Both the position numbers and the translations under genes were made by a program. This document shows, in pieces, positions 2,693 through 63,191 of a stretch of 64,000 nucleotides of DNA. The DNA is from Candidatus Omnitrophota bacterium. Lineage in GTDB: Bacteria; Omnitrophota; Gorgyraeia; Zapsychrales; Fredricksoniimonadaceae. Every line of letters starts with the position of its first letter. Position 1 is the stretch's first letter. The stretch covers positions 22,339 through 86,338 of the forward strand of contig JADFXH010000009.1 of assembly GCA_015233675.1 (NCBI GenBank). The letters are read 5' to 3'. The notes beneath the pieces are model-generated. The model saw only the letters and a program-made list of their open reading frames with translations, was not told where the DNA came from and did not search any database.

Positions 2693-4528
2693 TTATCTTC
2701 CGGATGATTTTTTAAGCTCACTGATAAATCCGGGATTAACAGCATATCCCAGTTCTTTTGCTTTATGCGCGTCACTCCACGCTTTATCATATTCTTTTAA
2801 CAAATAGTAAGTGCCAGCCCTGTTATAGTAAGCGTCTGGATAATAAGGATTTATTTCAATAGATTTTGTTAAATCAGAAACAGCTTGAGTGAAATTCTTC
2901 ATTTCACCATAAATGCAACCCCGTATGTTATAAGCGATGAAGTCATAAGGGTCTATTTCAATAGCTTTTGCGGCATCAGACAAGGCTTGAGAAAAATTGC
3001 CAAGTTTATGATATAGAATAGACCGGGTATGATACGGCAACACCCCCCTTGAGAATGATATTTTAATTGCTTTGGTATAATCAGCAATGGCCTTAATGAA
3101 TTCACCGCGGCTCTCATAAATTAATCCGCGGTTAATATAAGGCTCTATGTGGTTATCAGGATCTATGGCAATGGCTTTATTAAAATCAACCATCGCACGA
3201 TCAAAATTTCCTTGATTAAAATAGCCAGCACCTCGACTAAAATAAGGCCCTGGCTTATAAGGTGATTTTAAAACGGCATCATTCCACAAAGTAATATTGT
3301 CTTTCCAAATATTATTCCTTTGATAAGTCAGTAACGAGTTCCATCCTATTATCATCGCTAGAACCATAACCATCATTTTAATGCGATTCTTCCCCCAAAG
3401 ATAGTACGCTCCACTGACTAAAAATATGCTAAATCCCGCCAATGGTAAATATAGCCGGTGTTCAAAAATGATACCTCCCATTGCCCAAAAACTTGATTCA
3501 GGTATAGTTAGAGTCAAAAAAAACCAAAAGATGGAAAAGGAAAACAGCCTATATCTTAAGAATAGTCGTTTCGCCCAATAAAAAATAACTGTTAAAAATA
3601 AAAAACTGATCAATACAGGTAATTCCAAAATATTCTTGAAAATCGGATAATCATAATCTAAGTTCTGGTTTAACGGAATGAATAACAATCTTATATAGGT
3701 GACCATGGTCCTGAATTGAGTCAGGAAATAATGCATAGGGGTGATGACACCTCCATGCGCCCTTAAATCACCATGCATGCTTTGAAAAACTTGTGACTTG
3801 ATAAATAAGAATGTGACAGGAACAATAAATATGGTAAGCAAGAAAGGAGCAAGAATTCTCCAATTAAAACTTTTTTTAGTGTTTAAAAAACTGTACTCAT
3901 AAAACAATATCATTAAGGGCAATGTTACAGCATTCTCCTTAGTAAACATGGCTACAACTGCTGTTATCAAAGATCCTGTGTAATAAAATTTCCAATGGCC
4001 TAAACTAAGTTTTTCAACCTGCAGCAGCCTTGATTTGACATAAAGGCATAAGGACGCCAAATAAAACATGGCCGCCATTGAAGCAGCCCTCTGCCAAATA
4101 TACGTCACTGCTTCAGTTTGGACCGGATGGCTTACAAATACCAACCCTGCAAACAAAGCAATGAGACTAGCATGACGGGTAATTTTATCCTCTTTCATGG
4201 CAGGAGTAGAAAGAGTCAAAAGGGTCAGCCACCAGACTAAAATGGCCGTAATTATATGAACCGCCAAGTTAAACAGGTGGTATCCAAAAACATTAAGGCC
4301 GTTAAAGTGATAGTTAAAAGCCAGAGATAGAAAAACAAAAAAGCGGCCGTGAAAATAATGCCAGATGCTTTGCAAATTAAAAATGTTCCTTATTGGGATA
4401 TTATCGACTATGAATATCCTGTCATCGAACTGAAACGAACAGTGAAAGGAATTGGAATAAACAATAGTTCCCAGACAAGAAATGAGCAGGATTGAAAACA
4501 GATAAAACAGCCTCAAGCAAACCTCCAT
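2693..4528 (-). CDS. TMTC/PMT-like GT-C membrane protein with C-terminal TPR domain (tandem paralog 2)
   Basis: 611 aa. The N-terminal membrane domain is nearly colinear with the 924..2669 product, with long identical runs such as GRFFVFLSLAFNYHFNGLNVFGYHLFNLAVHIITAILVWWLTLLTLSTPAMKEDKI. The TPR region is divergent and one repeat longer. Confidence 0.6.
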   Translation of the reverse strand: MEVCLRLFYLFSILLISCLGTIVYSNSFHCSFQFDDRIFIVDNIPIRNIFNLQSIWHYFHGRFFVFLSLAFNYHFNGLNVFGYHLFNLAVHIITAILVWWLTLLTLSTPAMKEDKITRHASLIALFAGLVFVSHPVQTEAVTYIWQRAASMAAMFYLASLCLYVKSRLLQVEKLSLGHWKFYYTGSLITAVVAMFTKENAVTLPLMILFYEYSFLNTKKSFNWRILAPFLLTIFIVPVTFLFIKSQVFQSMHGDLRAHGGVITPMHYFLTQFRTMVTYIRLLFIPLNQNLDYDYPIFKNILELPVLISFLFLTVIFYWAKRLFLRYRLFSFSIFWFFLTLTIPESSFWAMGGIIFEHRLYLPLAGFSIFLVSGAYYLWGKNRIKMMVMVLAMIIGWNSLLTYQRNNIWKDNITLWNDAVLKSPYKPGPYFSRGAGYFNQGNFDRAMVDFNKAIAIDPDNHIEPYINRGLIYESRGEFIKAIADYTKAIKISFSRGVLPYHTRSILYHKLGNFSQALSDAAKAIEIDPYDFIAYNIRGCIYGEMKNFTQAVSDLTKSIEINPYYPDAYYNRAGTYYLLKEYDKAWSDAHKAKELGYAVNPGFISELKKSSGR

Positions 4529-5287: not shown

Positions 5288-5553
5288 GCATGCATTATAA
5301 GGACTAAATTTGTTCTTTGAAGCGACTGTAATTAAGTACATGAGTATGGATGGACAGGTATTATCAATACGGCACATTAAGGAATTTTTCGCCAAATGTC
5401 TGCGAGGATTTACGACAAAAATGTTCCAAATGAAGAGAAACTTTAGAACATTTTTGTTGTAAACCGAAGCAGACGGCGAAAATATTCCGTGCCGAATTGA
5501 TAATACCTGTCCATCCATCACGCTACAAATTGCACGAATGAAAAGAATAAATT
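5288..5553. repeat. composite: type II-like arms flanking type I copy A
   Basis: Left arm GCATGCATTATAAGGACTAAATTTGTTCTTTGAAGCGACTGT (5288-5329) is homologous to the arms of the 62701-62940 palindrome. Right arm GCACGAATGAAAAGAATAAATT (5532-5553) is partly complementary to it. Confidence 0.7.
5346..5518 (-). repeat. type I long-hairpin repeat, copy A (basal variant 1, apical variant 1)
   Basis: 173-nt imperfect palindrome ATGGATGGACAGGTATTA...TAATACCTGTCCATCCAT centred on the loop CAAATGAAGAGAAACTTTA. Lies between dapA and dapB. Confidence 0.9.
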
Positions 5554-9888: not shown

Positions 9889-11052
9889 TTAATACGGCAT
9901 ACCCCAAAGCCGGATAAAGCCTTCGGAAAGTTTGGGATCGAATATGTCTTTATCGCCGTAGGTCGCAAGCTCCTCTTTATAACGTGAAAACCGGGATTTG
10001 CGCCCCGCCACCTGACAGCTTCCTTTAAACAGTTTCAGCTTCACAACCCCGCTGACACGCTCCTGGGTCTTGTTAATAAACGCGTCTAATTGGATCTTGA
10101 GCGGAGTCTCCCATAATCCGTAGTACGTCAACTCGGCATAGCGGGGAGATATCAATTCCTTATAATGCAGGGTCTCACGATCAAGGACCAGGGCTTCGAG
10201 TTCTTTGTGCGCTGTCATTAAAACAGTTCCTGCAGGATTTTCATAAATCTCGCGGGATTTAATGCCTACCAAACGGTTTTCCACCATATCCACACGCCCC
10301 ACCCCATTGCGCCCCCCAATCTCATTGAGCTTAATGATCAACTCAACGGGGCCGTACGCTTTGCCATTCACTTTAAGGGGATTCCCTTTGACAAATTCCA
10401 CCTCGACATATTCCGGACGATCAGGGCATTTAAGCGGATTTTTGGTCATCGCATAGATTTCTTCCGGCGGCTCAACCCAGGGATCTTCCAAAACACCGCA
10501 CTCAATGGAACGGCCGTAAAGATTAATGTCCGTTGAGTACGGACTCTTTTTGGTGACATCAATAGGTATCTTATATTTATGCGCGTATTCAATTTCCTGT
10601 TCGCGGGTTTTAAATTCCCATGTGCGCAAAGGTGCCAATAACTCCAGATGAGGCGCCAATATTTTAGCGGTCACTTCAAAACGCACCTGGTCATTGCCCT
10701 TGCCCGTACAGCCGTGGGCAACAGCCGTTGCTTTTTCTTTTTTTGCCACCGCCACCTGATGCTTGGCAATCAAAGGCCGCGACAAAGCAGTCGCTAAAAA
10801 ATATTTACCTTCATAAACCGCATTAGCCTTGATCGCAGGAAAGACATAATCCTTAACAAATTCCTGCTTTAAATCAAGGATGTAAACCTTGGAAGCGCCT
10901 GTTGCCAGGGCACGCTTTTCGATTGCCTTAAAATCGCTCCCCTGCCCCACATCAGCCATAAAAGCAATGACCTCATAGTCCTTGTCTTTCAACCAACGGA
11001 TCAGGCAGCTGGTGTCTAAACCGCCAGAATAAGCTAAAATAACTTTCTTCAT
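9889..11052 (-). CDS. argG: argininosuccinate synthase
   Basis: 387 aa. AYSGGLDTS ATP-binding motif and GCTGKGNDQVRFE. Confidence 0.93.
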   Translation of the reverse strand: MKKVILAYSGGLDTSCLIRWLKDKDYEVIAFMADVGQGSDFKAIEKRALATGASKVYILDLKQEFVKDYVFPAIKANAVYEGKYFLATALSRPLIAKHQVAVAKKEKATAVAHGCTGKGNDQVRFEVTAKILAPHLELLAPLRTWEFKTREQEIEYAHKYKIPIDVTKKSPYSTDINLYGRSIECGVLEDPWVEPPEEIYAMTKNPLKCPDRPEYVEVEFVKGNPLKVNGKAYGPVELIIKLNEIGGRNGVGRVDMVENRLVGIKSREIYENPAGTVLMTAHKELEALVLDRETLHYKELISPRYAELTYYGLWETPLKIQLDAFINKTQERVSGVVKLKLFKGSCQVAGRKSRFSRYKEELATYGDKDIFDPKLSEGFIRLWGMPY

Positions 11053-11057
11053 AATAT

Positions 11058-11112
11058 CCCCTTCCTTAAAATTCCATTACCTTTCCATTGATTAGGTCGG
11101 GCCAACGCCCTT
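11058..11112 (-). repeat. ~56-nt repeat forming the argG 5' leader and Shine-Dalgarno region
   Basis: Minus-strand AAGGGCGTTGGCCCGACCTAATCAATGGAAAGGTAATGGAATTTTAAGGAAGGG, followed by GATATT and the ATG. A second copy lies at 12328-12383. Confidence 0.85.
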
Positions 11113-11128: not shown

Positions 11129-11377
11129 TGTCAAAATTCTTGCAGATTATGCATGAGAAGAGATATTATTTGCTCAACGGGATATTTTCGCCGTTGGCGT
11201 CGGTTTACAGCAAAAATGTTCTAAAGTCTCTCTTCATTTGGAACATTTTTCCTGTAAATCCTAGCCAACTTTTGGCGAAAAATCCCTGAATGTTTCGCAA
11301 ACAATATCCCTTCTCATGCATAACATACAATCCTTGCCCAGGCTGATACTGATATTCAGTGTCAGCCGTCCATGTAT
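11129..11377. repeat. TGTCAAAA-ended composite element carrying type I copy B (right end truncated or diverged)
   Basis: The left end TGTCAAAATTCTTGCAG and the internal sequence are colinear with 53304-53691, apart from the 112-nt insert. Homology ends near 11377 and there is no right TTTTGACA. Confidence 0.65.
11147..11323 (+). repeat. type I long-hairpin repeat, copy B (basal variant 3, apical variant 1)
   Basis: 177-nt palindrome TTATGCATGAGAAG...CTTCTCATGCATAA, sharing the middle stem and apical loop with the other copies. Confidence 0.9.
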
Positions 11378-11407
11378 TCATGTGTCGGGCCGACACAAGG
11401 TCAGTCC

Positions 11408-12322
11408 CTACGCTAACAACTTTAAAAGAACTGCCTTTTGCGCGTGCAAACGGTTTTCAGCCTGATCAAAAACTACCGAGTGTTCTCCGTCAATGATATC
11501 CGCTGTCACTTCCAGACCGCGATGTGCGGGCAGGCAATGCATGAAAATATAATCCTTATGGGCCGCTTTCACCAGATCCTTATTGACCTGATAACCCTTA
11601 AATTCTTTGATGCGTTTGGCTTTTTCTTTTTCCTGCCCCATACTGACCCATACGTCAGAATATATAATATCTGCTCCCTTAACGGCTTGCTGGGGATTTC
11701 GCCCTAATTCAATAGTACACCTATTTTTTTTGGCGCTATCTTTTGCATCTTGCACAATTTCATAGTTAGGATCATACCCTTTTGGGCCGGCAAAACGCAC
11801 ATTAATCCCCACTTTAGCACAAGCAATCATCAACGAATGAAAAACATTATTCCCATCACCAACATAAGCCAAGGTCAAGCCCTTGAATGAACCCATCTTC
11901 TCACGGATAGTCTGAATATCTGCCAGAGCTTGGCAGGGATGATACAGGTCGCACAAGGCATTAATGACCGGCACATCTGCGTGCTGGGCCAGTTCAAAAA
12001 TATCTTTACTGTCAAAAACCCTCGCAACAATACAATGCACATAACGCGACAAGGTCTTGGCCACATCATAAGTAGACTCACGCTTGCCCAGATTGATCTC
12101 TTCAGGCCCCAGATAAAGGCAATGCCCGCCTAATTCATAAACGCCCACTTCAAAAGAAACACGTGTGCGGTTAGATGGTTTTTGGAACACCAACGCGACT
12201 GTTTTGCCTTTCAAATCAGCACGCAATTTTCCTTTTTGTTTCTTTAACAAGCCTGCCGAATCAATCAAAGACACTATTTCGGCGCCGGAATAATCAGACA
12301 ATTTTATCAAATCACGTTTCAT
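11408..12322 (-). CDS. argF: ornithine carbamoyltransferase
   Basis: 304 aa. SNRTRVSFE carbamoyl-phosphate motif and HCLPAHRG. Confidence 0.92.
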   Translation of the reverse strand: MKRDLIKLSDYSGAEIVSLIDSAGLLKKQKGKLRADLKGKTVALVFQKPSNRTRVSFEVGVYELGGHCLYLGPEEINLGKRESTYDVAKTLSRYVHCIVARVFDSKDIFELAQHADVPVINALCDLYHPCQALADIQTIREKMGSFKGLTLAYVGDGNNVFHSLMIACAKVGINVRFAGPKGYDPNYEIVQDAKDSAKKNRCTIELGRNPQQAVKGADIIYSDVWVSMGQEKEKAKRIKEFKGYQVNKDLVKAAHKDYIFMHCLPAHRGLEVTADIIDGEHSVVFDQAENRLHAQKAVLLKLLA

Positions 12323-13580
12323 ACTTTCCCTTCCTTAAAATTCCACAAGCCTTGCCATTGATTAGGTCGGGCCAACGCCCTTTCGTCACAGCTCCCTTTT
12401 TCAAAACCGCCTCAATTGCCCCATCCAAAATATGAATAGCTTTATTAATTTGACGCCGGGTCACATTAAGTGCCGGCATAATACGTAATACATTGTCCTG
12501 CGTACAATTGATAATTAATCCCCTGCTAAAACATTCCTTAAAAATTGCGGCACCTTCAATTGTCAACTCCACTCCGATCATAAGCCCCAAGCCGCGCACT
12601 TCTTTAATAACGTCATATTTAGACTTCAATTCGTTTAACTTCATGACCAAATAGGGGCCCTGAACTTTAACCTTTTTCATTATTTTTTCAGCATAAATAG
12701 CTTTAATTACTCCCAAAGCTGCCTTACATACCAAGGGACTGCCGGCAAAGGTCGATCCGTGCATGCCCGGCTTAAAGATGTCAGCCAGCTCTTTTTTTAC
12801 AATCATAGCCCCTATGGGCAAGCCGCCGCCTAAGGCCTTGGCCAGGCACATCACATCCGGTGTTATGCCGTAATGCTTAAAGGCGAAGATCTCACCAGTG
12901 CGGGCCATGCCCGACTGAACTTCATCAATGATCAGCAGAATTTTTTGCTCATCGCAGATTTGGCGCAGAGCCTTCACATATTCCTTAGTAGCAACATTAA
13001 TCCCGCCTTCACCCTGAATAAGCTCAATCATAATGGCCGCTGTTTGATCATTGACCGCTGCTTTTAAAGCGCCGATGTCATTAAAAGGCACATGTTTGAA
13101 TCCGGGCACAAGAGGAGAAAACCCTTTTTGGTGCTTCTCCTGCCCTGTTGCCGTCAAGGCGCCCATGGTTCGGCCATGAAAAGCATTAATGGTCGTGATG
13201 ATCTCAAATTTCTTGCCCTCGCCGTACTTCCTGGCAAATTTAATGGCCGCCTCCACAGATTCCGTGCCGCTGTTACAGAAAAAAATCTTGCCCTCAAAAG
13301 AAATACGGATCAATTCTTTAGCTAATTTGGCCTGGTGAGGATTATAAAAATTATTCGGAATATGGATTAATTTCCCGATCTGTTCACGCACCGCACCCAT
13401 GACCTTAGGATGGCAATGCCCTAAGTTGCTTACACCCCAGCCAGGAAAAAAATCTAAATATTTCTTACCTTGAAAATCCGTCAGCTGTGACCCTTTGCCT
13501 TTAACAAAGATCGCAGGCATGCGGGTATACGTCAGAAGGATATGGTCGTTATATTCTTTAAAAATTTCGTCAGCTTTCAT
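12312..13580 (-). CDS. argD: acetylornithine aminotransferase (class III); the last ~23 codons are repeat-derived
   Basis: 422 aa. NSGTESVE, DEVQSGMARTG and the PLP lysine region. The C-terminal KGRWPDLINGKACGILRKGKYET is encoded by the 56-nt repeat also found upstream of argG. Confidence 0.88.
   Translation of the reverse strand: MKADEIFKEYNDHILLTYTRMPAIFVKGKGSQLTDFQGKKYLDFFPGWGVSNLGHCHPKVMGAVREQIGKLIHIPNNFYNPHQAKLAKELIRISFEGKIFFCNSGTESVEAAIKFARKYGEGKKFEIITTINAFHGRTMGALTATGQEKHQKGFSPLVPGFKHVPFNDIGALKAAVNDQTAAIMIELIQGEGGINVATKEYVKALRQICDEQKILLIIDEVQSGMARTGEIFAFKHYGITPDVMCLAKALGGGLPIGAMIVKKELADIFKPGMHGSTFAGSPLVCKAALGVIKAIYAEKIMKKVKVQGPYLVMKLNELKSKYDVIKEVRGLGLMIGVELTIEGAAIFKECFSRGLIINCTQDNVLRIMPALNVTRRQINKAIHILDGAIEAVLKKGAVTKGRWPDLINGKACGILRKGKYET
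12328..12383 (-). repeat. ~56-nt repeat forming the argF leader/SD and the argD C-terminal codons
   Basis: Minus-strand AAAGGGCGTTGGCCCGACCTAATCAATGGCAAGGCTTGTGGAATTTTAAGGAAGGG, followed by AAAGT and the ATG. Colinear with 11058-11112. Confidence 0.85.
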
Positions 13581-20683: not shown

Positions 20684-20855
20684 TTGAGATGAACAGCTAT
20701 TATATATTCGGCACGGGAATTTTTCGCCGTCTGCTACGGTTTACAGCTTGGCTGCTATCGCGATAAGGCATTCGCGGCAGCCAAGCTGTAAATCCTTGCA
20801 GACTTTTGGCAAAAAATTCCTATCGTGCCTCACACATAATAGCTGTTCATCTCAA
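20684..20855 (+). repeat. type I long-hairpin repeat, copy C (basal variant 2, apical variant 2)
   Basis: TTGAGATGAACAGCTATTA...TAATAGCTGTTCATCTCAA. The apex is CTTGGCTGCTATCGCGATAAGGCATTCGCGGCAGCCAAG. Confidence 0.9.
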
Positions 20856-20916: not shown

Positions 20917-21089
20917 ATGGATGGACAGGTATTATTAATTCGGCACATTCAGGAATTTTTTCCCAAAAGTCTGCGAGGAGTTACAACAAAAATGTTCCAA
21001 ATGAAGAGAATCTTTAGAACATTTTTGTTGTAAACCGAAGCAGACGGAAAAAATATTCCGTGCCGAATTAATAATACCTGTCCATCCAT
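20917..21089 (-). repeat. type I long-hairpin repeat, copy A' (basal variant 1, apical variant 1)
   Basis: Near-identical to copy A over 173 nt. Sits 61 nt from copy C in the asd / phosphatase intergenic gap. Confidence 0.9.
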
Positions 21090-42518: not shown

Positions 42519-42714
42519 TGTCAAAATTCCGCTTCTAGATGACGCGGGTCCTGTCCTTAGTCTCAACGTTAAGGTGCTCCTCAGACGGGGGCAACCTTAA
42601 CAGCAGCACCGACGGTGATATTCCCTATACCGCCCACTTGAGCAGGTGCCGTGCGCGCCTTAACATTGAAACTAAGGACACCCGCTAATCCATGTTTTCA
42701 TAAAACTTTTGACA
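42519..42714. repeat. TGTCAAAA-ended element with GC-rich structured cargo (196 nt)
   Basis: Ends are TGTCAAAATTCC... and ...AAAACTTTTGACA. The inner long stem GCGGGTCCTGTCCTTAGTCTCAACGTTAAGG (42544-42574) pairs with CCTTAACATTGAAACTAAGGACACCCGC (42658-42685), enclosing a GC-rich ~80-nt core. Confidence 0.75.
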
Positions 42715-46248: not shown

Positions 46249-47292
46249 CTATTTACCCGATGCCGTTTTTAAAGCTTCGATAAAACCAGGGTTAACCGTG
46301 CCCCCTAATTCCTGAGTCTTGCGCACATCAGCCCATGCCTTATCGTATTGTTTTAACTGATAATAACCAACAGCCCGGTTATAGTAAGCCTTTGTATAAT
46401 TTGGATTTAAATCCAGAGCCTTAGTCAAATCAGCAATAGCTTCGTTAGGTTTAATCTCTCGAAGATAAGAAAGAGCACGGATCATATAGTTTTTAGCATC
46501 TTTTGAGTTTATAGCAATAAGTTGGGTAAAATCAGAAATGGCCTGAATAAAATTTTGCTGATCATAATAGATGCTCCCACGGATATAATAGGCAACGCTA
46601 TCTTTACTGTTGAGCTCAATAGCTTTGTTATAGTCTGCAATGGCGGCAGATAAATCTCTTTTTTTGATATAGACAAGACCTCGCTTCCTGTAAAGAATCC
46701 CCTCTTTAGGAAAAAATTCAATAGCTTTATTATAATCCATCAAAGCAGCATCGAAATTGCCTTGTTTTACATAGGCCTTACCGCGGTTAACCAAGGCTAT
46801 GACATCCTTAGGATAAACTTCAACAGCTTTCGAATAGTCAGAAATAGCATCAGTGATTTTGCCTTGGTTATAGTAAATAATGCCGCGATTGTTGTAGGCA
46901 GCTGCGAATTTTGGGTTTATTTTTATAGCTTCGTTATAATCTGACAAAGCAGCTGTTAAATTTCCTTGTTTAACATAGAATTGGCCGCGATCAGTATAGG
47001 CCTTAAAATCTTTTGGATCTATTTCAATGGCTTGTGTAGAATCAGAGATGGCATCAGTTAAGTTGCCTAATTTGGCTAGAGCAAGAGCACGGTTGGCATA
47101 TCCTGAAGCATTTTTGTGGTCTGCTTCAATCGCCTTGGTAAATTCCGCGACAGCTTCCTTGAAATTGCCCTGTTTCATGTAGGTCAATCCTAAATCATTA
47201 GGCCCCTTGACCGTCTGTGCATATACAGATGAAATAATTAAAAAAAGCATGGCCGCTAAAGTCAGTTTTTTTAATCCAAAACAATATTCCAT
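46249..47292 (-). CDS. secreted/periplasmic TPR-repeat protein
   Basis: 347 aa. N-terminal signal-like segment (LTLAAMLFLIISSVYAQ), then ~9-10 TPR units. The C-terminal cap is shared with the two TMTC-like proteins. Confidence 0.75.
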   Translation of the reverse strand: MEYCFGLKKLTLAAMLFLIISSVYAQTVKGPNDLGLTYMKQGNFKEAVAEFTKAIEADHKNASGYANRALALAKLGNLTDAISDSTQAIEIDPKDFKAYTDRGQFYVKQGNLTAALSDYNEAIKINPKFAAAYNNRGIIYYNQGKITDAISDYSKAVEVYPKDVIALVNRGKAYVKQGNFDAALMDYNKAIEFFPKEGILYRKRGLVYIKKRDLSAAIADYNKAIELNSKDSVAYYIRGSIYYDQQNFIQAISDFTQLIAINSKDAKNYMIRALSYLREIKPNEAIADLTKALDLNPNYTKAYYNRAVGYYQLKQYDKAWADVRKTQELGGTVNPGFIEALKTASGK

Positions 47293-53273: not shown

Positions 53274-53322
53274 CACAGGACATCCCTGCCGGGCGCATGG
53301 TCGTGTCAGAAATTCTTGCAGG

Positions 53323-53499
53323 TTATGCATAAAAAGAGATATTATTTGCTCAACGGGACATTTTCGCCGTTGGCGTCGGTTTACAGCAAAAATGTTCTAA
53401 AGTTTCTCTTCATTTGGAACATTTTTGCTGTAAATCCTAGCCAACTTTTGACGAAAAATCCCTGAATGTTTCGCAAACAATATCTCTTTTCATGCATAA
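53323..53499 (+). repeat. type I long-hairpin repeat, copy B'
   Basis: Near-identical to copy B (TTATGCATAAAAAG...CTTTTCATGCATAA). Confidence 0.9.
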
Positions 53500-53531
53500 C
53501 ACCCAATCCTTGCTCAGGCTGATACTGATAT

Positions 53532-53643
53532 GTTGTTCTGACGTATAAAAATCTGAAACCTTGCATTCGGCTGGTCTTGACGCGTGACCCCGAATGTGGG
53601 AAACCACCCTACCAGCATGAACAAAGATTTTAGCCAGAACAAC
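53532..53643. repeat. 112-nt nested hairpin insert with 9-nt terminal inverted repeats
   Basis: GTTGTTCTG...CAGAACAAC, flanked by ATAT on both sides. The paralogous site at 11351-11359 (GATATTCAG) is uninterrupted. Confidence 0.8.
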
Positions 53644-53704
53644 ATATCAGTGTCAGCCGTCCATGTATCACGCGCTCATAAACTTTTGACACTGCCGGGC
53701 GCAC

Positions 53705-62660: not shown

Positions 62661-62700
62661 TCCTCATGAGCACACGGACATAGAAGCATGCAACTCTAGT

Positions 62701-62940
62701 GCATGCATTATAAGGAATGATTTTGTTCTTTTCGCTCCTGAAAGTCATTTTCTTAACGCCAAAAATTCTTATGACGACTCGGTGGTCAAACAACTCGCTC
62801 TTTCTTTCTCTGGAAATAAAGAGCTCAAACATGTTTGACCATTTAAGCCTGAGGGCTTAAATGCCCTCGTCATCATAAGTTTTTTGGCTAAAAATGACAC
62901 AGTCGCTTCAAAGAACAAATTCATTCCTTATAATGCACGC
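62701..62940. repeat. type II ~240-nt Y-shaped palindrome
   Basis: The basal stem GCATGCATTATAAGGAATGA (62701-62720) pairs with TCATTCCTTATAATGCACGC (62921-62940). Two apical hairpins are present: TGGTCAAACA...TGTTTGACCA (62783-62841) and TTTAAGCC-TGAG-GGCTTAAA (62842-62861). Confidence 0.85.
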
Positions 62941-62982
62941 ATCATTAGATGAATTGTCTTTTTAGAAACACATTTAGGATGG

Positions 62983-63158
62983 CTGAACAGCTATTCTTAT
63001 TATGTATTCGGCACATTCTGGAATTTTTTCCCAAATGTCTGCAAGGCTTTACAGCTTGGGTGCCGCATATGCCTTATCGCGATAGCATCCAAGCTGTAAA
63101 CCGTAGCAGACGGGAAAAATATTCCCGTGCCGAATACATAATAAGAATAGCTGTTCAG
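62983..63158 (-). repeat. type I long-hairpin repeat, copy D (basal variant 2, apical variant 2, inverted relative to C)
   Basis: CTGAACAGCTATTCTTATTATGTATTCGGCAC...GTGCCGAATACATAATAAGAATAGCTGTTCAG. The apex is the reverse complement of copy C's apex. Confidence 0.9.
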
Positions 63159-63191
63159 ACTTCACGCGTTCCTGTAAGGAGAATAATTCAT

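Follow-up and report, generated by a model that had tools for sequence, protein, structure and literature searches.

Type I hairpins in the window

A stretch of 64,000 nucleotides from a Candidatus Omnitrophota bacterium (assembly GCA_015233675.1, contig JADFXH010000009.1, positions 22,339 to 86,338 of the forward strand), referred to below as the window, contains housekeeping operons in which a hairpin repeat, designated type I, occurs in exactly six copies (c1 to c6; Table 1). The copy between argF and argG (11147-11323, c2) is a near-perfect hairpin of 177 nt that reaches -52 kcal/mol when folded as DNA (z = -13 against dinucleotide shuffles); all folding described here is predicted. The evidence leans towards a dispersed, non-coding and non-autonomous hairpin family that is restricted to Candidatus Omnitrophota. 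Members of this phylum are uncultured, often ultra-small and possibly host-dependent, and have compact genomes, so that six hairpins of 175-270 nt (basal stem included) in 64 kb of housekeeping operons are unexpected. The initial annotation had held that such a hairpin does not look like a random palindrome, and this agrees with the frequency of the core pattern, which occurs six times in the window against 0.16 expected in shuffles.

By convention, the hairpins are oriented so that a 4-nt bulge is placed on the 3' arm. The helix GTCTGC/GCAGAC is present in c1, c3, c4 and c6 and is replaced by GTTGGC/GCCAAC in c2 and c5, exactly as the initial annotation had read it copy by copy. The adjoining helix is CGCC/GGCG in c1 and c2, CGCC/GGCA in c3, TTCC/GGGA in c4 and TCCC/GGGA in c6. 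These five copies agree with the earlier reading, whereas c5, which had been listed with CGCC/GGCG, contains GACG in its 3' helix, giving a C-A mismatch. As had been claimed, the 3' arm of all six copies, but not the 5' arm, has TTTT or ATTT separating the two helices. A mismatched loop (GC-NN-CGG / NCC-NN-GC) beside TTTACA/TGTAAA is also present in all six; the stem TTTACAG/CTGTAAA that had been named as its neighbour is exact in four of them, with TTTACAA/TCGTAAA in c1 and TTTACAA/TTGTAAC in c4.

Table 1. Type I copies in the window and the parts of copy c2 (bits, covariance model score)
Feature	Position	Strand	Description
Copy c1 (A)	5346-5518	-	dapA/dapB spacer; 144 bits
Copy c2 (B), the argF-argG hairpin	11147-11323	+	Conserved core 11161-11305; 129 bits
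Copy c3 (C)	20684-20855	+	A2-type apical module (GCTTGGCTGCTATCGCG...); 123 bits
Copy c4 (A')	20917-21089	-	Adjoins asd; 92% identical to c1 over 214 nt
Copy c5 (B')	53322-53500	+	Lies upstream of a leuC-like gene of the aconitase family; identity to c2 95% over 222 nt
Copy c6 (D)	62978-63163	-	Adjoins a complete type II hairpin (62700-62941)
c2, 5' arm helices	11189-11198	+	CGCC 11189-11192 (pairs with GGCG 11274-11277); GTTGGC 11193-11198 (pairs with GCCAAC 11264-11269)
c2, 5' side of internal loop and following stem	11199-11210	+	Loop GT 11199-11200, then CGG 11201-11203 and TTTACAG 11204-11210
c2, apical loop (A1-type apical module)	11223-11239	+	AAAGTCTCTCTTCATTT
c2, 3' arm	11252-11269	+	CTGTAAA 11252-11258, TCC 11259-11261, loop TA 11262-11263, GCCAAC 11264-11269
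c2, one-sided 4-nt bulge	11270-11273	+	TTTT on the 3' arm; no additional bases opposite it on the 5' arm
c2, 3' arm, outer helix	11274-11286	+	GGCGAAAAATCCC, pairs with GGGAT-A-TTTTCGCC (11179-11192), leaving a 1-nt bulge on the 5' side
c2, second one-sided 3' bulge	11287-11291	+	TGAAT; counterpart of 4-6 nt in 103/104 copies

Distribution of the family

One genome per species (185,579 species) was scanned with a pattern fixing 25 bases common to the six window copies. The scan returned 89 stretches in 32 species-level genomes, which are metagenome-assembled genomes (MAGs) or single-amplified genomes. All 89 are labelled Candidatus Omnitrophota/Omnitrophica or belong to 'uncultured Planctomycetales' bins; a locus from one of the latter bins (L061) shares synteny with the window, with amino-acid identities of 71-89%. 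Sequence around the matches was examined in 8-kb chunks. A covariance model built from 82 of the scan sequences found 104 oriented copies in the loci of the 32 genomes and the window taken together, and for every copy one strand outscored its complement by about 100 bits. The window copies score 123-144 bits in the orientation given here and 34-46 bits on the reverse strand, which shows the asymmetry to be systematic. Nine further loci were identified in metagenomes with a second pattern that was anchored on the outer core and left the inner stems free; this brings the collection to 113 copies in all.

No type I match was found in viral contigs by pattern scan or in plasmids by blastn. A search of the window against Rfam gave no matches at the gathering threshold, and a permissive E-value yielded only sub-threshold, generic microRNA-precursor hairpins. 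Literature searches for Omnitrophota repeats found no description of these hairpins. The type I family is taken to be previously undescribed, a variant within the palindromic-repeat kind that stands outside any named family.

Compensatory change between the arms

Covariation was measured at 34 predicted pairs of a MAFFT alignment that was not fitted to the structure. The first collection was ascertained by the pattern with 25 fixed bases, and these 25 positions are uninformative on covariation. Cells of the alignment were paired in 96.4% of cases, against 81.6% with shuffled partners (none of 500 shuffles reached the observed value) and 35-53% when one side was slid by 1-3 columns. Changes on both sides were present in 425 cells against 124 in shuffled and 54-103 in slid alignments, counts that overstate the number of independent events because the copies are related by descent and recombination, an effect that the slid controls and a tree-aware count correct in part. 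On a neighbour-joining tree of 100 distinct copies, parsimony placed 168 double changes from one Watson-Crick pair to another on branches, compared with 4-20 in slid controls and with 103 single-sided changes on the same tree.

Broken cells are almost absent from the two pairs that were free of the pattern, which take the states CG/UA/GC at 65/22/13 and UA/CG/GC at 48/44/9. The pattern-free positions show eight dinucleotide variants, each accompanied by its exact complement. The inner stems also covary once they are released from the pattern, TTTAC/GTAAA changing to TTTAT/ATAAA and TTTACA/TGTAAA to TTTACGG/CCGTAAA. Mismatches and G-T pairs occur at 3-4% of cells. The initial annotation had proposed from the window copies that pairing is preserved by compensatory substitution in both arms, and this is borne out across the 104 copies. 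Intrastrand complementarity of the arms is kept through many independent compensatory changes, either by selection or by a strongly biased process.

Conserved asymmetry and modular architecture

The type I element is composed of an asymmetric core of about 145 nt, an interchangeable apical module and a faster-evolving basal stem. The core is interrupted by a pair of bulges confined to the 3' side, by a 1-nt bulge on the 5' side and by a 2x2 internal loop. The first 3' bulge, located between the GCNNAC and GG helices, measures 4 nt or more and occupies the 3' arm in 104 of 104 copies (ATTT in 60 and TTTT in 18); in a few subfamilies it has grown to 18-30 nt with its side unchanged. The second, (C)TRAWT, is 4-6 nt long and present in 103 of 104 copies (CTAAT, CTGAAT, CTTATT and others). 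The internal loop (TA/TT, TT/TC, GT/TA) is never fully Watson-Crick in the 104 copies. Among all 113 copies, it is perfectly complementary only in L091 (9692-9840; GCTTCGG / CCGAAGC), which has kept its ATTT bulge. Arm-to-arm correction does occur but does not spread. The arms are thus not always exact copies of each other, the pattern that the initial annotation had associated with gene conversion alone. The asymmetry is held against occasional arm-to-arm correction, and the specific imperfections are selected. In L095 (399-565), an extra small hairpin (TCCCC...GGGGA) is inserted within the 3' arm.

At least three alternative apical modules were found, and different inner modules can sit on the same basal stem. 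Identity between copies of one genome is 0.83-0.97 for the inner arms and 0.56-0.75 for the basal stems, compared with about 0.5 for unrelated sequence. The basal arms of one copy pair with each other at -38 kcal/mol, compared with -28 kcal/mol when paired with another copy of the same genome and -20 kcal/mol with a random copy. The basal stems within a genome are homologous, differ by compensated substitutions and are specific to a single copy or a small group of copies. In several genomes, pairing resumes past an internal loop and extends the hairpin to about 270 nt, and the CG1_02_40_15 group has conserved, non-complementary shoulders. Single arms have no fold of their own (six arms folded as DNA, z = -1.8 to +0.4 against shuffles).

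Insertion of the core into the centre of existing host palindromes was considered as a source of these copy-specific stems. At the one pair of filled and empty sites, the 212-nt indel includes the basal stem, and no dyad symmetry is present where the element is missing. Since the basal stems are, in addition, homologous within a genome, the pre-existing-palindrome reading was dropped, and fast compensated divergence together with module swapping is preferred.

Gain, loss, inversion and exchange of copies

Near-identical copies are found at unlinked loci of the window (c1 and c4, c2 and c5), and the duplicated unit takes in adjoining modules. The presence or absence of copies differs between species at about 90% identity. 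Locus L061 lacks the argF-argG element, its spacer being 108 nt against 355 nt in the window, and contains an element after argG, where the spacer of the window is 14 nt. In L059 (UBA10183), a segment of 212 nt contains the hairpin, and L086 (OS_PC_MetaG.mb.108) is empty at the same site. The exact ArgG protein of the window, looked up in search of strain variants, gave no match.

Cores are inverted at orthologous sites. The element on the asd side has opposite orientations in the window (c4) and in L076 (6800-7060), with the orientation of the outer flank kept. L012 (430-900) and L030 (1150-1680) share an almost identical, collinear outer inverted repeat (AAGCTCTGGCAGGTTTTGAGAAAAG), and the inner element is inverted between them and belongs to a different subfamily. 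The flanking genes are likewise collinear in both comparisons. These in-place inversions suggest flip/flop by recombination between the arms combined with exchange between copies. Different subfamilies also occupy the same spacer at different distances in L007 and L042, the flanking proteins of which are about 90% identical, a case of independent occupancy. Between L083 and L032, which are about 91% identical at the locus, a basal-stem block of 5 nt differs simultaneously in the two arms; such block compensation points to templated correction or between-copy exchange rather than stepwise mutation. Overall, type I copies undergo gain or loss, in-place inversion and exchange among close relatives.

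Proposed mechanism

Compensatory pairing together with fixed imperfections agrees better with a mobile hairpin of the REP/REPIN or YPAL type than with a palindrome that arose by chance or an RNA gene tied to one strand. The explanation to which we give a modest preference is a non-autonomous hairpin repeat whose bulged fold would be the substrate of a trans-acting enzyme. The selected form would be the folded single strand, most probably DNA exposed in replication or repair. A strand-specific enzyme encoded elsewhere would recognise the bulged hairpin and copy or move it without target-site duplication, and REPIN/RAYT or IS200/IS605 may serve as working models for its chemistry. Quasi-palindrome template switching and recombination between copies would help to produce the paired double changes, and recombination between the arms would flip the core. 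Any effect on the co-transcribed mRNA would be a by-product. The initial annotation had suggested that the folded form, as single-stranded DNA or RNA, is what is recognised. Preserved pairing is borne out, RNA is not favoured, and recognition is inferred, with no partner enzyme found in the sequence searched.

Several observations weigh against this explanation. None of 20 open reading frames (ORFs) of the window that were compared with Pfam and no gene beside the elements elsewhere encodes a transposase, integrase or HUH protein; tblastn with approximate IS200, IS608 and RAYT queries likewise found nothing real in 724 kb, a sample of only a few percent of the genomes, so that this absence carries little weight. 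The units shared by c1 and c4 and by c2 and c5 pass beyond the hairpin, and some of the spread may have come about by segmental duplication or recombination instead of transposition. The orthologous core differs between three closely related species at 32 of 444 positions (7.2%), compared with 56 of 427 (13.1%) four-fold degenerate sites of the adjacent gene. This divergence hints at constraint on resident copies, which is not predicted for a purely selfish element. The strand complementary to the orientation used here folds 3-4 kcal/mol better in 47-51 of 59 complete hairpins and has more G-T pairs (79 against 51 in the same hairpins); this strand preference is weak, and the 59 copies are not phylogenetically independent. 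In combination with the mixed orientation and the in-place inversions of the copies, it is compatible with folding of single-stranded DNA on whichever strand is exposed.

Two candidates that arose in the search for a partner were rejected. A weak tblastn match beside the L072 element was spurious and lay inside a large helicase-like ORF, possibly PriA judging by its translation. A protein family recurring beside elements in nDJH2bin13 consists of GT4 glycosyltransferases and is not a partner candidate.

A related reading, which we hold only tentatively, is that type I, specific to Omnitrophota, represents either a hairpin replicator inherited vertically over a long time or a structural element that has become domesticated. 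Its partner enzyme would be of a type so far not connected with repeats of this sort. The asymmetric core would then be under purifying selection in place, and its orientation would be switched by recombination between its own arms.

Genomic context and a possible RNA function

The neighbours of type I are housekeeping genes (dapA and dapB, argF and argG, asd on one side, and a leuC-like gene downstream of the element), as well as glycosyltransferases and similar genes. Of 85 scorable copies, 77 are located between co-directional genes, four between convergent and four between divergent genes, a split that matches the genome baseline of 523:31:31. The copies tend to lie nearer to the upstream stop codon, often within 0-50 nt of it (the medians of 46 and 85 nt depend on approximate element boundaries). 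With respect to transcription, 47 copies are in sense and 30 in antisense orientation (three and three in the window).

This context raises the possibility of a cis-acting RNA hairpin selected by the host within operons as a processing, stability or pausing element, for example as an RNase III substrate or mRNA stabiliser. The tandem contexts in housekeeping operons, often just past a stop codon, the very stable fold with its strong covariation, the divergence of the orthologous core at about half the four-fold-site rate and the conservation of the core across the whole phylum all speak for such a function. It is nevertheless judged unlikely. The orientation of the copies is mixed and is opposite at orthologous sites of close relatives, even though the asymmetric features do not vary. 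A selected RNA strand should give an excess of G-U over A-C, and the 34 core pairs contain G-U 47 times and A-C 46 times, so there is no RNA strand signature. Presence and absence differ between species that are about 90% identical, and a scan for promoter-like and terminator-like sites detected neither of these nor a U-tract in the type I hairpins, which also lack an Rfam match in the window. The equality of G-U and A-C, the mixed orientation and the in-place inversions mean that a strand-specific RNA function is not supported.

Two other readings of the sequence were rejected. A promoter composed of TATTAT in the basal stem and an upstream TTGCAG is not conserved across subfamilies and was not called by the scan, and the ORFs that overlap the elements, examined as possible peptide-coding sequences, are palindrome artefacts.

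Less likely origins: transposase-bound repeats, mutational processes and attC sites

The classical MITE (miniature inverted-repeat transposable element), derived by internal deletion from an insertion sequence with a DDE transposase, would explain the hairpin as a mere consequence of very long terminal inverted repeats bound as double-stranded DNA. In favour are the small size, the non-coding and intergenic nature and the multiple copies of type I, its filled and empty sites and its mosaics with other repeats; bacterial MITEs characteristically form long stem-loops (PMC2229807). Direct repeats at the hairpin boundaries, however, are no longer than in shifted-boundary controls and there is no duplication at the junctions of the L059/L086 pair, so no signal of target-site duplication was detected. 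Conservation is lowest at the termini and highest in the centre, which is the opposite of transposase-bound terminal inverted repeats, and binding of such repeats as double-stranded DNA does not require compensatory covariation. No half-elements flanking a gene, as expected of an autonomous element, were found in 724 kb, where only two truncated copies were detected. Because it lacks target-site duplications and conserved termini, type I is not a DDE-type MITE in the usual sense, and this origin is considered improbable.

An origin of much the same low probability is a purely mutational one, in which quasi-palindrome template switching, arm-to-arm conversion or recombination between copies generates the pattern without selection on structure. 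The paired changes fall mostly as double changes on single branches (168 against 103 single-sided), the basal block of L083 and L032 changed on both arms, the internal loop of L091 has become perfectly complementary by conversion and modules are exchanged as unbroken inner segments, all of which would follow from such processes. Correction of this kind would, however, erase the bulges and loops, which persist in 104/104, 103/104 and 112/113 copies across 33 genomes, and the tolerated mismatches and G-T pairs also argue against it. The persistence of the bulges and the loop means that correction happens but is not the whole explanation.

An integron attC site or another site-specific recombination site, which would share the folded imperfect palindrome, the extrahelical bases on one strand and the variable centre, can practically be dismissed, as type I has no RYYYAAC/GTTRRRY core-site pair at its ends and occurs in mixed orientation among syntenic housekeeping operons rather than cassettes, with no integrase in the window.

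Relation to known repeat families

The initial annotation had compared type I with REP/RAYT repeats, IS200/IS605 ends and attC sites. As families, these comparisons do not hold, the defining features of each being absent from type I. Type I appears, from the descriptions compared here, to work most like REPINs and the long palindromic repeats of the YPAL/ERIC/Correia kind.

REPINs, which are REP doublets mobilised by RAYT tyrosine HUH transposases, show compensatory changes on both sides of the hairpin (Bertels and Rainey 2011, PMC3116915). Such pairing of inverted halves is also present in type I, which resembles REPINs further in being extragenic, multi-copy and non-coding, in forming a long imperfect hairpin that is predicted for ssDNA or mRNA, in occurring as singlets and clusters without an internal transposase, and in being lineage-restricted, so plausibly subject to long vertical inheritance. 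REPINs are about 70-110 nt long, with conserved ends, a variable spacer and, at each end, a short REP palindrome (20-40 nt) that folds by itself into the 'clover' form, whereas type I elements are 175-270 nt long, with a conserved centre, a variable base and single arms without their own fold. No RAYT was found among the 20 scanned ORFs of the window or, with approximate queries, in 724 kb. Since its arms are not REP palindromes and its pattern of conservation is inverted, type I is not a REPIN.

The YPAL/RU-2 (about 168 bp) and ERIC/RU-1 (127 bp) repeats of enterobacteria and the Correia/NEMIS elements of Neisseria resemble type I in that they are 100-200 bp long, intergenic, non-coding, often co-transcribed and found in either orientation, with the whole element forming one long stem-loop and with filled and empty sites between relatives. 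Target-site duplications are TA for most of these families and 3-26 bp for YPAL (review PMC2229807), whereas none was detected for type I. YPAL lacks a terminal TA, has internal inverted repeats and is tied to regions of dyad symmetry (PMC2229807); by description, type I agrees with it in size, internal inverted repeats and filled and empty sites. Type I also differs from these families in its invariant one-sided bulges, in having no apparent sequence relationship to them and in spanning a candidate phylum, theirs being found within a genus or family.

IS200/IS605 and PATE elements share with type I the absence of target-site duplication, and their recognition of a bulged hairpin on one strand would explain both this and the asymmetry. 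They have two different subterminal hairpins (left end, LE, and right end, RE), in contrast to the single full-length hairpin of type I, for which no conserved target tetranucleotide was identified and near which there is no TnpA or TnpB. Without LE/RE hairpins and a nearby TnpA, type I does not fit IS200/IS605. The attC sites likewise function in a folded single strand in which extrahelical bases mark the strand and the centre is variable. Type I has no R'/R'' core sites, cassette array or integrase and has housekeeping neighbours; with no core sites or cassettes, it is not attC.

Other hairpins and repeats

A second hairpin family (type II) of about 240 nt, with termini GCATGCATTATAAGGAATRAATTTGTTCTTT and an internal asymmetry of its own, is complete at 62700-62941, and a single-arm remnant of it (5288-5330) flanks c1. 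Type II is conserved in other Omnitrophota species (L003, L007, L028, L051, L060, L071 and L089) and usually adjoins type I directly, so that the two form BIME-like mosaics. Read outward, the right end of type II is TTCAAA-16-TATAAT, which agrees with a sigma-70 promoter at 10/12 positions, and this promoter-like end on a neighbouring element is a likeness to Correia elements.

A small hairpin (GGCTGATACTGATAT/TCAGTGTCAGCC) is located beside c2 (11341-11367). Its counterpart beside c5 (53517-53658) has about 115 extra central nucleotides, which include an extended stem (GTTGTTCTG/CAGAACAAC), a difference that may represent either a nested insertion into the hairpin loop or a central deletion of a longer palindrome. 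In L032 (3330-3400), a small hairpin of 49 nt (CCCTTCGAC...GTCGAGGG), also seen in L053 and L001, is inserted in the 3' shoulder of type I with GACGAG on both sides. The orthologous copies of L073 and L083 lack this insert, which looks like another small mobile hairpin.

The spacer between the genes for an Rrf2-family regulator and a pterin-4a-carbinolamine dehydratase contains a 129-nt imperfect hairpin (42552-42680; -62 kcal/mol with flanks) that is unrelated in sequence to types I and II. A 65-nt leader is present at 11048-11112 and 12318-12382 (78% identical), where it immediately precedes the start codons of argG and the gene at 11408-12322. The leader contains a small G+C hairpin (GGGCGTTGGCCC) followed by AAGGAAGGGG and ATG, and a similar small hairpin (TGTGTCGGCCCGACACA) follows the stop codon of argF (11376-11392). 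Nine copies of a 54-nt unit, many of them 102 nt (34 codons) apart, were found at 1108-1365, 2949-3212 and 46607-47068 within three large paralogous ORFs (924-2669, 2693-4528 and 46249-47292). The period of 34 codons suggests, from the sequence, TPR-type repeat proteins.

Significance for Omnitrophota genomes

The covariance model of type I provides a lineage marker and an annotation tool for Omnitrophota MAGs, and the repeats themselves are likely break points in assembly and binning. The family also offers unusually clean data for separating selection for pairing, selection for imperfections and mechanical arm-to-arm correction. If the flip/flop reading is true, the operon spacers of these organisms would carry an invertible structured module. 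REP-like repeats are usually limited to a species or genus, and a core that is recognisable across the phylum suggests either that the family has long persisted by vertical descent together with an enzyme of its own or that it serves the host.

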